Shown in pieces: positions 46,348-56,208 of a stretch of 59,525 bases of DNA (its first letter is position 1; every line of letters starts with the position of its first letter). The stretch comes from Desulfopila sp. (GTDB lineage Bacteria; Desulfobacterota; Desulfobulbia; Desulfobulbales; Desulfocapsaceae), in the NCBI GenBank assembly GCA_036350815.1, contig JAZBNU010000477.1, positions 1 to 59,525 on the forward strand, given 5' to 3'. Below the pieces are notes generated by a model. It did no database searches and was not told the origin of the DNA. It saw only the letters and a program-made list of their open reading frames with translations. A program made the position numbers and the translations under genes.

Positions 46348-47853
46348 TTACGCCGCCTTGTTGTCGGCCTGGTGGTCACGGTCCAGGTGAAAATTAACCC
46401 AGGAGGAAGTGTCTTTGAGGTCCCAGAGACGTGGGGGCACAAATTCTCCGGTAAGTTCGTCGGTCTCTCCATATCTTTTCATGCGATAGTAGGCGCGAAC
46501 CCAGACACAGAGACGGTCTTCGTTAACTTCACAGTAGCCGAGACTGCTGCCGCCGCAGGCTCCGTTTCTGGTGTGCTTGGGGCAGCCTGATTCCGGACAG
46601 AGAAAACCAACATGCTGGATACCACAGTCACCACAGCTTTGACAGCTGAGCATCAGTTTCTTGAAAGGGTCTTCAAGGAAAAGCTTCAAGGCCCAGGATG
46701 TTTTGCTTTTGTCCAGAGAGCTGGAAATTTTTTTATAGACAGGCGCCAGTGCGGCATTTTTATCAAAGAACCAATCATGCGCGGTTCGCAGGAAAAGATA
46801 GTGGCAGTTGTCTCCAACAGTGAGCTTGATTTTCTCCTGGTAGGTGCGGGTACTTTTGGATTGTTGTTTCATCCCATATAGATAGAAGCACTGCGGGTCT
46901 CTTTCCTGGAATTCTTCTCGGTAATCTTCCCAGTTGTGTTCTATCTCATCCATGCGGTCGAGCACTTGGGCTACTGTGTCATAACTGTCATGAATGCCGC
47001 CGATATGAATACCATTATATCCTATTCCCTTGAGTACTACTCCAAGACGGGCGATCCTCTCCATGGCGTGTTTTTTGCCTTCGCCGGGGGTTTCGTATTC
47101 CTGTAGAACTTTGTTCAGAAGGCTGTCGGAAACATGGACTCCCGGAACTTTACCGGCATTCATGGGCTTGGCTGGTCCTTTTCCCAGAAGATAGAGAGAG
47201 GCCAGTACTGGTGCATCAATATTATGTTCTTTGTTGTAGAGAAGGAGTTCCTCATATTTGTCTATATCGTAACCAAGCTGAGTTATGCAGAAAGATGCTC
47301 CTGCCTCGATTTTTCTTTCGAGTTTCCGGTATTGTACCATTGTTTCCCCTTCAGTAAATTTAAAGGGTGAAACGGCACAGCCAACGTGGAAAAGTTCCGA
47401 ATGGCCCATCTTAATCAAACGTTTGTTGAGATCGTTGAGCATGGAGATCAGGATTACCGAGTCGAAATCAAAGACGGGAGTACCGCGCCCGCCAAAGCCC
47501 TGGCCTGAATAGTCGCCGGTGAGGGCGAGAATGTTTTTCATACCCATATGGGCGAGCTGTAAAGCCCTGCTTTCCATGCCCACTCGATTGGTATCTCTGC
47601 AGGTGAAGTGGACAATTACATCCATACCGTAGCTCTGCATTTCATGACCCAGTGCATCAGGGCTGAGAGCAGGATTTCCGCCGGGATTATCAGTTATTGA
47701 TACGGCGCTAATGCGACCATCCTCATATGCATCTCTGGCAATGGTCTTTATCTTGTCGAGTTTCTGACCGGAAATCTCTCTGCCGGGAACCAGTTCCAGA
47801 GTTACAATAAATTTATTCGGTGTTGAGATGTCATCATTGAAATTGCGTTTCAC
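46348..47853 (-). CDS. metF: Methylenetetrahydrofolate reductase fused to a Cys-rich MetV-like C-terminal domain
   Basis: ITDNPGG, HFTCRDTN, LALTGD, KIEAGA..ITQ. C-terminus CQSCGDC...CPESGCPK..RNGACGG..CEV...CVW. GTG start with RBS AAGGAG. Confidence 0.82.
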   Translation of the reverse strand: MKRNFNDDISTPNKFIVTLELVPGREISGQKLDKIKTIARDAYEDGRISAVSITDNPGGNPALSPDALGHEMQSYGMDVIVHFTCRDTNRVGMESRALQLAHMGMKNILALTGDYSGQGFGGRGTPVFDFDSVILISMLNDLNKRLIKMGHSELFHVGCAVSPFKFTEGETMVQYRKLERKIEAGASFCITQLGYDIDKYEELLLYNKEHNIDAPVLASLYLLGKGPAKPMNAGKVPGVHVSDSLLNKVLQEYETPGEGKKHAMERIARLGVVLKGIGYNGIHIGGIHDSYDTVAQVLDRMDEIEHNWEDYREEFQERDPQCFYLYGMKQQSKSTRTYQEKIKLTVGDNCHYLFLRTAHDWFFDKNAALAPVYKKISSSLDKSKTSWALKLFLEDPFKKLMLSCQSCGDCGIQHVGFLCPESGCPKHTRNGACGGSSLGYCEVNEDRLCVWVRAYYRMKRYGETDELTGEFVPPRLWDLKDTSSWVNFHLDRDHQADNKAA

Positions 47854-48293: not shown

Positions 48294-48734
48294 TTAATGA
48301 GGGGCAAAGTAGAGTTTGTCGAATGCAGTGACCAGTTCTTTCAGTTTTGTGATATTTTCCAGATCAACCGTCTGTTTTGCTTTCATTGCATAGATCAGCA
48401 TCTGATGGAGAAGTGCCAGTTCCTCATGGTACATTTTTTCATCCGGCTTGATGCGCTGCGTCATGAAATACTGAGTGACGATGTTTTGAAATTGTTCAGC
48501 ATGATCCTCTTTATTCATCACCCAGCGAATCAGCTGATTGTTGTTGTTCCCTTTCTCTAGATCCAGTATCTGTCCCATTGATTTTTCCATAGTGGCGATA
48601 TGCTCTTCAAGCATGGTAATCCTCATTTTGTCATCGTAAATACCGCAAGGAATTTCGCAGTGTGACCAGGATGCTGCTGCGGAAAAAAATAGAATCGCTA
48701 TGAGCGTGAAACTGTGAATGGCATATTTAAACAT
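48294..48734 (-). CDS. sodN: Nickel superoxide dismutase precursor
   Basis: Ni-hook HCEIPCGIYD directly after a signal peptide (AAASWS). Also RWVMNKEDHA. Confidence 0.9.
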   Translation of the reverse strand: MFKYAIHSFTLIAILFFSAAASWSHCEIPCGIYDDKMRITMLEEHIATMEKSMGQILDLEKGNNNNQLIRWVMNKEDHAEQFQNIVTQYFMTQRIKPDEKMYHEELALLHQMLIYAMKAKQTVDLENITKLKELVTAFDKLYFAPH

Positions 48735-53094: not shown

Positions 53095-54306
53095 ATGAGT
53101 GAAATAATATTAATCAATATCACAGGCAAAGACCGCAGAGGGCTCAATTTCAAGTTCAGTGCCATTCTGGCGAACTATGATGTGAATGTCCTGGATATCG
53201 GTCAGTCTGTTATTCATGAACATATTTCCTTGGGAATTCTTGTGGAGATCCCCAATGGAGATGATTTTCCGGCTCTTTATAAAGATGTTCTTTATGAGGG
53301 GCACAATCTGGGCCTCTCCGTTGATATCCAACCGGTAAGTCATGATCGTTATGAAACCTGGGTAAAGGCAAAGGGGCAGGAGCGGCGTAAAATTACCCTA
53401 CTGGGAAAAAAGCTTACCGCAGAACAGATTGCCGCAGTAACTAACGTTATTCATCAAAACGGTCTCAACATTGACAGTATAACGCGTCTTACCGGTCGGA
53501 TATCTCTAGTTTCTCCCCAGCAGAAACCGCGGGCGAGTATTCAGTTGAGTGCCAGTGGAGTGCCAAGAGACACTCAGGGAATGCGGCGGAGCTTCATGGA
53601 GATTTCCCAGCAGACCGGCATAGACATCTCCTTTCATGTTGACAACATTTATACCCGAAACAGGAAACTTGTTGTTTTTGATATGGACTCTACTCTTATA
53701 TCCGTAGAGGTTATCGATGAGCTTGCCAGGCTCGCCGGGGTGGGGAATGAGGTTGCGGCCATCACCGAATCGGCCATGCGGGGCGAGATTGATTTTCAGG
53801 AAAGTTTTCGTCGCAGAGTTGGATTACTAAAAGGGCTCGATGCAGAAAAGCTGGCTGGCATAAACGAAAAGCTGCCGCTTGCCGAAGGGGCGGAAATTGT
53901 CACTAAAACCCTGAAAGGACTGGGGTATAAACTGGGAATTTTGTCAGGTGGCTTCACTTTTGTGGGTGAGTTCCTCAAGGAAAAGCTCGGTTTTGATTAT
54001 ATCTATGCGAATACACTTGATATTGTTGATGGTAAAGTCAGCGGTAAGGTGGTAGGTGAGATCATAGACGGCGAGAGAAAGGCGGAACTGCTCAAAATGA
54101 TAGCCCATAAAGAAAATATCAACCTGGAGCAGACCATTGCCGTGGGCGACGGTGCTAATGACCTTCCCATGATCAGTCTGGCAGGTCTCGGGGTTGCCTT
54201 TCATGCCAAACCGATTGTCAGGGAAAAGGCGGGCAACACCATCTCCAGCGTCGGGCTTGACGGGCTGTTGTACCTTATAGGTATCCACGACAGAGAAATC
54301 CGTTAG
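53095..54306 (+). CDS. serB: Phosphoserine phosphatase with ACT domains
   Basis: VFDMDSTL, AMRGEIDF, LSGGF, GDGANDL, N-terminal ACT domains. Confidence 0.93.
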   Translation: MSEIILINITGKDRRGLNFKFSAILANYDVNVLDIGQSVIHEHISLGILVEIPNGDDFPALYKDVLYEGHNLGLSVDIQPVSHDRYETWVKAKGQERRKITLLGKKLTAEQIAAVTNVIHQNGLNIDSITRLTGRISLVSPQQKPRASIQLSASGVPRDTQGMRRSFMEISQQTGIDISFHVDNIYTRNRKLVVFDMDSTLISVEVIDELARLAGVGNEVAAITESAMRGEIDFQESFRRRVGLLKGLDAEKLAGINEKLPLAEGAEIVTKTLKGLGYKLGILSGGFTFVGEFLKEKLGFDYIYANTLDIVDGKVSGKVVGEIIDGERKAELLKMIAHKENINLEQTIAVGDGANDLPMISLAGLGVAFHAKPIVREKAGNTISSVGLDGLLYLIGIHDREIR

Positions 54307-54357
54307 GAACAACAGGTACACCTCTGCGGGTAAATCAGGCGGAGGTGCACCATGCAC

Positions 54358-54480
54358 TTATTTCTTGTCGGGTTGTGGTGGTTTGTAGGACAGGCATTTT
54401 CGCAGGATGGCCTGGAAGGTGTCCCAGTCCCTGGTTGTCAGAACGGCCTGTTTGGCAAATGCAATCTCGTTTTTCATCAT
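54358..54480 (-). CDS. 40-aa micro-protein downstream of the cobalamin riboswitch
   Basis: RBS AGAGGAGG 5 nt before ATG. Peptide MMKNEIAFAKQAVLTTRDWDTFQAILRKCLSYKPPQPDKK. Confidence 0.55.
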   Translation of the reverse strand: MMKNEIAFAKQAVLTTRDWDTFQAILRKCLSYKPPQPDKK

Positions 54481-54517
54481 GGTAAGCCTCCTCTTTCTGG
54501 GTATGAAGGCCTGGAGC

Positions 54518-54557
54518 AAAAAAATGCCCCCAGACCAATGAGTGGTGATCTGGGGGC
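54518..54557 (-). terminator. Attenuator terminator of the riboswitch expression platform
   Basis: Minus strand GCCCCCAGATCA-N8-TGGTCTGGGGGC followed by ATTTTTTT. Confidence 0.7.
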
Positions 54558-54676
54558 CCTGATTTCTCCACAGATGCATTGCAACGACCCCGTATCCTCG
54601 GAGGTCGTTATCGTGTCCGGATGTTTTCAGAAGCGGCGACCGGTCAACCGGCACGCAAAAGAATCCAGACCAGGCA

Positions 54677-54830
54677 TGAGGCAGGTATTCTGACTCCCGG
54701 ATCAACCATTGCCTGCGCCTTCCCAACCTGTGGTCAGTGGCATATGCAGAGTCTGTCCCCGGTTACAGCGGCGGGCCCGTTTCCGATTTACACGGAATTC
54801 CCTTTTCTGTCGTATCGACACCTCATAAAG
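54677..54830 (-). ncRNA. Cobalamin (B12) riboswitch
   Basis: Minus strand AGGTG...AAAAGGGAATTCCGTGTAAATCGGAAACGGGCCCGCCGCTGTAAC...GCCACTG...TGGGAAGG...GAGTCAGAATACCTGCC, with canonical B12-box elements. Confidence 0.92.
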
Positions 54831-54924
54831 AGATCATACCCGAGATAAGACCACTGGTCAACTGGTATGTTCGCGATATATTCTTGTACCACATGTAGTG
54901 GTCCTTCTCGGGTCCCTGGCGCTT

Positions 54925-56208
54925 CTATCTGACCGTCGGCCGGAGCAGGAGGAAATTGGCCGGAGCCGGATTAGCCGGCTCGGTCTCAGCTTCTGGGTCA
55001 GGTATGCTGCCATATTGCAGATAGGTGGCGGCGCAACCCACTCTGGCGGATTGGGCCTGGATGCGCATGTATCCGTCTTCACCCCAGTTTTTTCCCCAGG
55101 AATTGCGTAGAATCCAGTAGACTCCAAGGACTGGGTCCGTTCCCCAGCCGACCAGGGCGACAGCGTGATTTGTTGCCGTATAGGCTCCATATTCACAGGC
55201 GGTCTTGGTGTCGCTGAACACGCCGCCGATATAGTCTTCGAAGGAATTAGAAACCAACACTGCAACGTCGAGGACGCCGTATGTTGCCAAAGCCTGCTGG
55301 ATAGCTGTGGTATTGTTTGGTGCGATTCGCCCCCAGCTCTTGAACCTGGTTCTGGGAGTGTTCCAGGAGCTGCAGCCGCCCGGGTCAGTACCGGTATATG
55401 GAAAAAGGGACTCGAGAATGATACCCTCCTTGGTTAAAGCTGTCAGTTCGGCATAGTCATAGTCAGCTCCGTCGCAGCCACTGAAATGTTCTGAATATGG
55501 CCCATATTTACCCAGGCACCAGGCGATAAAGGATTCGGAAAAATCGATAACCTGGTTATTGTATCTGCTGGTGGCGTAGTTATAGGTACCTTCTGCCGCT
55601 GCTGCTGCCCCGAAGGCATAGCAGGAGCCGCAGCTGCCCTGGTTCCGAACAGCTCCGATATAGGATTTTCCGTTGAAATTACGCCAGTCCAGAGCCTGCG
55701 GCAGAGCTGCCATGGTTTTTTGTGCACTGAAAAGCGGGGTATCGGTTGGGGTGGGAGAGAGGTTTCTCACTGGCCGTCTCCTGGCCGGTTTCATCAGGTT
55801 TTCTGCTTCCAGCAATTCCAGCATCTGGATCCGTTTTCCAGAACTACTTTTCGAACGGGGTACGCAAACAGGTACATCTCTGACAAAATTCCGTTCCTGG
55901 ATTCGTTCGGTTTCCATGGAAAAGCCCTTTTGTTCACAGAAAGAAAAATGCTGCGCCTCCCTGCCGCGAAAAAAACTCCAGGCATCTGCACTGCTGTGGT
56001 CCGGGAAGGTGCAGACGTCTATTGTATTCCCTTCTCTGTCTCTGCTGATGGAGTAGTCGTAACCCATTGCTTCGCAATAGATAGCCGCTGGATTGGCAGC
56101 TGCCCGGCATTCTGTACTGGCCAGTGTCAGAAAGTAAAAAGCACATACAAATATGCCATGAAGTTTCAGCATCTTTTGAGAACATGCGCTGTGGAACATC
56201 CTGCTCAT
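54925..56208 (-). CDS. Secreted C1A (papain-family) cysteine peptidase with N-terminal DUF333-like domain
   Basis: ANPAAIYC..MG (DUF333-like), LDWR, QGSCGSCYAF, NHAV.LVGWG, RNSWG. Confidence 0.85.
   Translation of the reverse strand: MSRMFHSACSQKMLKLHGIFVCAFYFLTLASTECRAAANPAAIYCEAMGYDYSISRDREGNTIDVCTFPDHSSADAWSFFRGREAQHFSFCEQKGFSMETERIQERNFVRDVPVCVPRSKSSSGKRIQMLELLEAENLMKPARRRPVRNLSPTPTDTPLFSAQKTMAALPQALDWRNFNGKSYIGAVRNQGSCGSCYAFGAAAAAEGTYNYATSRYNNQVIDFSESFIAWCLGKYGPYSEHFSGCDGADYDYAELTALTKEGIILESLFPYTGTDPGGCSSWNTPRTRFKSWGRIAPNNTTAIQQALATYGVLDVAVLVSNSFEDYIGGVFSDTKTACEYGAYTATNHAVALVGWGTDPVLGVYWILRNSWGKNWGEDGYMRIQAQSARVGCAATYLQYGSIPDPEAETEPANPAPANFLLLRPTVR

Follow-up and report, generated by a model that had tools for sequence, protein, structure and literature searches.

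A cobalamin riboswitch cassette with a conserved small protein as its apparent sole target in the Desulfobulbales

On the minus strand of the window, the 59,525-nt stretch of Desulfopila sp. DNA analysed here as a whole (contig JAZBNU010000477.1), a cobalamin riboswitch with a terminator platform precedes a 40-codon open reading frame (ORF). Judged from comparative sequence data, this ORF very probably encodes a real, undescribed small protein under purifying selection. It belongs to a new family of small proteins and is a B12-riboswitch target of a new kind, one that falls within the known class of small regulators under riboswitch or metal control. The favoured reading, to which we assign a probability of roughly 0.45, is that B12 shortage leads to production of the protein, which then acts in trans by binding a protein of cobalt or corrinoid handling that faces the cytoplasm, so as to raise supply. 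A wider view is somewhat better placed: the cassette may be the first case in which the output of a B12 riboswitch is a stand-alone regulatory micro-protein, a relay from cobalamin level to post-translational control of cobalt or corrinoid traffic or of B12 enzymes. Its origin would lie in leaders or N-terminal extensions of genes for B12 uptake, from which it would have been freed several times in one order that includes the cable bacteria (Ca. Electrothrix).

The regulons of B12 riboswitches comprise transporters, synthesis enzymes and B12-independent isozymes. Were a conserved 30-residue protein to be the only target, cobalt/B12 homeostasis would gain a layer of post-translational control. 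The host order, Desulfobulbales, comprises sulfate reducers, sulfur disproportionators and cable bacteria, and the peptide family accounts for many of its apparently orphan B12 riboswitches. Leader, fusion and free gene form a natural series for studying the origin of small proteins, and the peptide is short enough to be synthesized and used as bait.

Architecture of the cassette

A predicted sigma-70-like promoter (54833–54861, minus strand as for all elements up to the ORF), absent from an earlier note on this DNA, has 10 of 12 consensus matches in its −35 and −10 elements with a 17-nt spacer and would place the transcription start near 54826, where the aptamer P1 stem has its first base. 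The aptamer (54663–54840) is the sole Rfam match in the window. It scores 116.6 bits against the cobalamin model RF00174 (E = 1.3e-28; cut-off 31.5 bits) over model positions 1–189, and the canonical B12 riboswitch that the note had read at 54830–54677 is its core. The expression platform begins with a hairpin carrying a purine-rich conserved loop (54583–54609; −15.5 kcal/mol, z −3.25), a candidate P13/L13. It continues with a candidate antiterminator (54566–54575), a conserved segment that can pair with the 5′ arm of the terminator, and with the intrinsic terminator itself, a 12-bp stem followed by a U-run (54518–54557; stem 54557–54526, −24.3 kcal/mol, z −4.11). Behind it lies a segment (54508–54514) that, by covariation, pairs with the terminator 3′ arm in the read-through fold.

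The Shine–Dalgarno sequence GAGGAGG (54487–54493) stands 6 nt 5′ of the ATG at 54480. The ORF (54358–54480) has a conserved core of codons 1–30 (54391–54480) and a variable tail; extended versions of 122 aa (from a TTG start) and 98 aa were rejected, as they traverse the terminator and are unconserved. Between the ORF and a convergent serB-like gene (53095–54306, plus strand, with ACT and HAD domains), a stem-loop (54312–54355) can form on either strand (z −2.9 and −3.0); its end is 6 nt away from the serB-like stop codon. It is likely a terminator shared by the two genes, with a U-run that is weak on the minus strand. All three hairpins are more stable than shuffled sequences (z −2.9 to −4.1), and a hairpin at z < −2 occurs downstream of 57 of 95 stand-alone copies of the ORF. 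Hairpin, terminator, strong ribosome-binding site, 40-codon ORF and 3′ stem-loop were all found where the earlier note had placed them, and its remark that there is no room for a usual B12 target holds, the next gene being the convergent serB-like one.

Upstream, a gene for a secreted-looking protein with DUF333 and a papain-like C1 peptidase domain (54925–56208, minus strand) separates the cassette from glcD. It is an insertion in the window, glcD lying directly upstream of the cassette in the other nine genomes of the genus, and no obvious terminator is seen between it and the riboswitch promoter. About 6.5 kb from the cassette, an MTHFR + DUF5981 gene (46348–47853, minus strand) adjoins genes for a Ni-superoxide dismutase (48294–48734) and a TetR/CecR regulator; no link with the cassette was found. 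In one RNA run (X1, share 0.22, contigs only), a single contig of depth 4 spans 54526–54825 and stops at the terminator stem; transcript ends, strand and level cannot be read from it, and it continues upstream unlike the window.

A platform with two exclusive folds

The switch was analysed in an alignment of 43 of 92 short-spaced leaders, with the window as row 1. Fold 1, formed by the first hairpin and the terminator, has 90.9% of cells paired and 11 of 15 pairs compensatory, and fold 2, formed by the antiterminator and the helix capturing the terminator 3′ arm, has 87.4% and 7 of 12, both having been derived from the same alignment that scores them, which favours them. At the level of single elements, all six counted pairs of the first hairpin are compensatory, the terminator stem has 94.8% of cells paired (5/9 pairs compensatory) and the helix of segment 54508–54514 has 93.4% (5/6 compensatory). 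The antiterminator reaches 81%, with two of six pairs changed on both sides and one pair mismatched. For each fold, none of 500 shuffles scores as high on four of five measures. A strict script finds a terminator-like element in 65 of 143 leaders versus 1 of 47 shuffles. These patterns identify, at the level of predicted pairing, a platform with mutually exclusive terminator and read-through folds. In cobalamin riboswitches an L5–L13 kissing loop couples ligand to platform (PMC9600662); here L5 is nearly invariant (125/130), and a crude search singled out no partner loop for it.

The leader permits several alternative pairings, and folding alone leaves unsettled whether B12 turns the switch ON or OFF. 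By analogy, B12 binding would favour termination (OFF with B12), because the same leader precedes btuB and cbiK operons, genes that B12 riboswitches repress; deltaproteobacterial RF00174 leaders precede btuB, btuFCD, cbiK and nrdDG (PMC545781). Under B12 shortage, polymerase would pass the terminator, and read-through would allow translation of the 40-aa protein.

Distribution and linkage to the riboswitch

With the 40-aa peptide as query, 23 of 60 other genomes match at E < 2e-6, including 9/9 of the genus, and six weaker matches (E 0.002–0.05) turned out to be 30–31-aa relatives. A 30-sequence profile finds the small protein in 186 of 401 genomes of Desulfobulbales (one match each in 181 of the 186), with 102 of 126 genomes matching in the window's family. 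A deeper profile gains 1 of 70 formerly negative genomes, and that genome has the riboswitch too. In two phylum samples of 401 genomes nothing matched outside Desulfobulbales; the matches were the window's genome and two others from the order. The window's genome holds a single copy. Because many complete relatives are without the gene, the small protein is dispensable. Named relatives fall in Desulfobulbaceae, Desulfocapsaceae, Desulfurivibrionaceae and Ca. Electrothrix, all as ‘hypothetical protein’ or unnamed. The family is mostly unannotated or mis-started, the window's gene itself being stored in databases as both 40 and 98 aa. Searches of open-licence papers and bioRxiv found no description of the peptide; subscription papers, supplements and RegPrecise-type tables lie outside that scope and could list the gene.

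A set of 144 non-self loci was assembled from 29 found with the peptide query, 15 further from the profile and 100 fetched; it leaves out 10 listed and 41 unlisted profile matches. RF00174 lies upstream on the same strand in 28 of the first 29 loci by Rfam, the one miss starting 71 nt from a contig end. Over the whole set the riboswitch is upstream on the same strand at 141/144 loci (within 250 nt at 134), as counted with a profile built from those 28 Rfam loci, whose own matches are thereby guaranteed. A spot check with Rfam itself, in which doubtful loci were over-represented, confirmed it in 14 of 18. A Shine–Dalgarno-like word is present at 140/144 relatives.

In L058 (370–1470) a 367-aa ORF, possibly a mobile-element gene, stands between riboswitch and peptide gene. 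The complete genome G655 has two copies (L123, L125), one in the usual dapL position that has lost its riboswitch and a second with one. L177 is a member on a contig labelled as Patescibacteria group, likely a binning or naming matter.

Conservation, selection and predicted structure

The core, about 30 residues in total, aligns gap-free from residue 5 to 27. Counted with the window and without L121, a fused copy that has lost the D-W-D motif and its Trp, W19 and Q23 are present in 144/144, an aromatic F/Y22 in 144, D20 in 142, E5 in 140, R27 in 139, K10 in 130 (Arg in 13) and D18 in 130. Cys recurs at W+10 in 73/144. Length varies from 28 to >60 aa owing to unconserved tails, and 30 aa recurs in several lineages.

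Synonymous codons are freely swapped at the invariant residues. Within the genus third codon positions are the most variable (entropy 0.94 versus 0.31 and 0.23). Selection acts on amino acids and not on RNA sequence, because third positions vary and Arg27 is encoded by both CGN and AGR. The ratio pN/pS is 0.16 in the window's stand-alone genus, where synonymous sites are near saturation. For five further stand-alone groups it lies at 0.17–0.33 and for a group that leads btuB at 0.15, so that all 7/7 groups fall between 0.15 and 0.33. Reading the same DNA out of frame on the sense strand yields ratios of 1.9 (13 stops) and 1.5 (8 stops), and the only antisense frame to score low (0.28) contains seven stops. 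The proposal of the earlier note that the riboswitch controls an undescribed small protein is borne out by the conserved family, the riboswitch at 141 of 144 relatives and the purifying selection.

AlphaFold2 predicts a two-helix hairpin (residues 3–15 and 19–31) with a mean pLDDT of 77, rising to 84–89 over residues 11–30. The peptide is soluble-looking, with two amphipathic helices in the prediction, and has neither a transmembrane helix nor an invariant metal ligand. No Pfam or NCBIfam family exceeds its cut-off; an NCBIfam phage O N-terminal domain was rejected (E 0.018, 15.5 bits against a cut-off of 45.5). PDB sequence matches were judged chance, the best being a RING domain (E 0.017) and another a DWDSFQ-like word in actin-like 6A (E 0.14). 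Foldseek finds 0 matches in the PDB at E ≤ 0.001, and the best ESM Atlas match (0.86) leads to unnamed clusters. Among the best 150 of 158 matches in 1.8 billion representatives there are one real long protein, a receptor fusion, and one repeat artefact, the top match (5183 aa, 31 short stretches), which was set aside.

Genomic arrangements

The peptide gene leads a TonB-dependent BtuB-like receptor gene at 31 of the 144 loci and cbiK at three; at eight it is in frame with the N-terminus of CbiK and at one with a BtuB fragment. No btuB or cbiK lies within 350 nt at 92 loci, six are cut by contig ends, and at three either gene is >1.5 kb away, one of these (L116) leading a DUF2162 operon; for 44 loci only ∼1.5 kb downstream is visible. 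In eight of the nine examples listed, among them all eight receptors scanned, the best NCBIfam match is a B12 receptor model, with partial sequences that score below the cut-off. Operon orders are btuB-exbB-exbD-tonB-btuF-btuC-btuD and cbiK-btuC-btuD-btuF-cbi, with several names given by inspecting translations. Most CbiK fusions have no Shine–Dalgarno-preceded start ahead of the hydrophobic stretch; L111 and L113 have a possible internal Shine–Dalgarno and start and may be overlaps rather than fusions. Protein searches add two further receptor fusions. In the fusions, the peptide core lies upstream of the hydrophobic stretch or apparent signal peptide. At L017 (763–1210), cobalamin and TPP riboswitches stand divergently back to back, the former driving a peptide–CbiK fusion.

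The neighbours of stand-alone copies are constant within a genus and differ between genera (serB, panE, feoB, dapL, an oxidoreductase gene). Within the window's genus, a convergent gene follows at 10–175 nt. A tree of 126 leaders (riboswitch plus ORF), midpoint-rooted so that no direction of change is given and leaving out 18 loci (no or distant riboswitch, undetermined context, duplicates), requires nine changes of the stand-alone label, seven of them forced by well-supported branches, and three for fusions. Because the stand-alone state needs these nine changes and the peptide is retained, the cassette moves as a unit, keeping the peptide with or without a following B12 gene.

Proposed mode of action

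That the peptide acts in trans is quite probable, because constraint persists although most copies are not followed by a B12 gene. Given trans action, a target on the supply side is somewhat favoured. In the proposed mechanism, W19, D20, Q23 and R27, on one helix face, would form a binding surface with E5 and K10. Through it the peptide would act on a cobalt or corrinoid transport or handling protein: on the cytoplasmic side because it precedes an apparent signal peptide in the fusions, and on that class of target because of the gene context and the analogy with MntS.

The strongest competitor, a tentative one, places trans action on the demand side: the peptide would bind an enzyme that uses B12 or stands at a tetrapyrrole branch point, or else a regulator, and thereby spare or redirect B12 or its precursors. 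All the evidence for trans action applies to it equally, as does the soluble-looking pair of amphipathic helices. Its genomic hints are four loci (L029, L047, L055, L131) where B12-dependent nrdJ follows the cassette by 0.5–0.9 kb on the same strand, three of them with the aptamer 376–693 nt from the ORF, and three (L026, L027, L114) with the cassette directly after a gene that we take to be hemC-like. It also has a precedent in IF17, which lies behind a glutamine riboswitch and inactivates glutamine synthetase (PMC6212724). However, the neighbours vary by genus, every recognizable B12 operon with the peptide concerns uptake or cobalt insertion, and the B12-using enzymes NrdJ and MetH do not track the peptide. 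Among 40 carriers and 39–40 non-carriers, hand-picked across families and including kin that are not independent, nrdJ occurs in 36/40 versus 31/40 and metH (E ≤ 1e-60) in 8/40 versus 11/39, MetH not being found in the window's genome.

The same comparison bears on the partner in general. Neither cbiD (31/40 carriers versus 33/40 non-carriers) nor the membrane protein heading the cbi operon (34/40 versus 35/40) tracks the peptide, so that no B12 gene tested does; the BtuC/FecCD-type permease (40/40 versus 38/40) is non-discriminating. On gene content, BtuB would be excluded as the partner, and CbiD, NrdJ and MetH are probably not it, since each is missing from some carriers; an ABC importer is possible. 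A predicted complex between the peptide and two copies of the genome's BtuD-like ATPase scored 0.00 with an uncertain partner fold, and speaks neither for nor against binding.

Less probable again, though not negligible, is a cis-acting leader peptide for btuB or cbiK, working by translational coupling or as a ribosome-arrest sensor in the exit tunnel, with stand-alone copies as relics or serving only a local neighbour. The ribosome exit tunnel holds ∼30 residues, and the conserved part of the peptide begins at the first codons and runs gap-free over about that length. Moreover, in many btuB-leading loci its stop overlaps or abuts the btuB start, the in-frame fusions to exported CbiK retain the motif, and B12-riboswitch uORFs of M. 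tuberculosis offer a precedent (PMC11260477). Against this, the stop position is unconserved, the peptide has been kept at each of its repeated detachments, and the window has no co-transcribed gene downstream; 92 of 144 loci have no adjacent btuB or cbiK (43 have one), yet constraint in the genus is as strong as noted above.

An RNA product, with the ORF incidental, is improbable. It could be B12-controlled antisense transcription into serB, as the earlier note suggested, or an sRNA that works in trans, as Rli55/EutX and AspocR reportedly do. A nearby, convergent serB-like gene is present in the window and in 9/9 other genomes of the genus, and the weak minus-strand U-run of the 3′ hairpin may let some read-through occur. 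But the loci where serB adjoins the cassette number just 9 of 144 and all belong to the window's genus, which leaves no conserved convergent target, and the variation at third codon positions and the mixed Arg27 codons speak for a protein.

Least probable, and already largely refuted, is that a longer gene (cbiK, btuB or a DUF1778/TacA antitoxin) is decaying and has left this fragment behind an orphaned riboswitch: in-frame CbiK and BtuB fusions exist and the C-terminal tails are unconserved, but every stand-alone group tested is under purifying selection with Shine–Dalgarno and ATG intact, the peptide gives no alignment to the genome's own CbiK and no Pfam, NCBIfam, PDB-sequence or fold match, and the best 150 of the representatives matched yield no real long protein beyond the one receptor fusion. 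The earlier note's idea of a deleted-operon remnant stands as history, 43 of 144 loci being at the head of or in frame with btuB or cbiK, and fails as decay, stand-alone copies being equally constrained.

Comparison with known systems

The supply-side reading owes most to MntS of Escherichia coli, a protein made under metal shortage that is homologous to the N-terminal signal region of an importer and binds a transporter (10.1101/2023.06.02.543501). Both are proteins of <50 aa, expressed under metal shortage (as proposed here for the peptide), that stand alone in some genomes and in others are linked to an exported metal-handling protein at its N-terminus (SitA for MntS, CbiK/BtuB here). Homology of the peptide to MntS or to a signal peptide was not found, with no Pfam or NCBIfam family over its cut-off, and in the fusions the core sits ahead of the hydrophobic stretch. 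With the cyanobacterial glutamine riboswitch–gifB/IF17 pair (PMC6212724) the peptide would share a riboswitch that controls a small trans-acting regulatory protein. Ligand and RNA class differ, however; the IF17 switch raises synthesis on binding, whereas the cassette has a terminator and would be OFF, and the target of IF17 is known (glutamine synthetase), whereas one is only proposed here.

The M. tuberculosis metE and ppe2 uORFs (PMC11260477) likewise are short ORFs directly behind a B12 riboswitch, with a stop/start overlap that recurs in the btuB-leading copies. In contrast, they act in cis on the next gene, whereas most copies of the peptide have no B12 gene downstream and its residues are conserved across an order. 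The peptide is a member of none of these three systems. Deltaproteobacterial RF00174 leaders have the same aptamer class, a terminator platform and, for 43 of the 144 loci, the same kinds of target operon; the passages on them in PMC545781 mention no small first cistron, whereas here it is the sole gene controlled.

A loose likeness to DUF1778 C-termini had also been suggested in the earlier note. What the peptide shares with DUF1778/TacA is generic, an amphipathic helix behind an acidic N-cap. DUF1778/TacA antitoxins have an N-terminal ribbon-helix-helix and an adjacent GNAT toxin. Unlike them, the peptide has no ribbon-helix-helix part (its core starts at Met1, with two predicted helices only), and no GNAT gene is among the downstream genes listed. 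Its context is that of B12, none of 116 members matches in Pfam at E ≤ 1, and the PP motif is present in 3/144, so the likeness falls away.

Other B12 riboswitches of the host genome

The window's genome has five B12 riboswitches, four besides that of the cassette, together with BtuC/D-like genes, a second CbiK and nrdJ; with the queries used, no BtuB-like gene, CobN or MetH was found in this 93.6% complete assembly. One riboswitch precedes cbiK, and another an operon of a membrane protein gene followed by btuF-cbiA/cobB-cbiC-cbiD-cbiET-cbiL-cbiF-cbiG. A further one (G000, C532:22834–23039; L003, L169) stands before a ThiC-like gene, over the cut-off for ThiC and below it for the BzaB model, a candidate benzimidazole synthesis gene. 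The weakest (G000, C24:11988–12194; L005, L170), at 64.6 bits, stands before a trpD-like gene that is accompanied by a 70-aa ORF and a gene resembling zinc dehydrogenases, an unusual set of B12 targets that is possibly related to the lower ligand.
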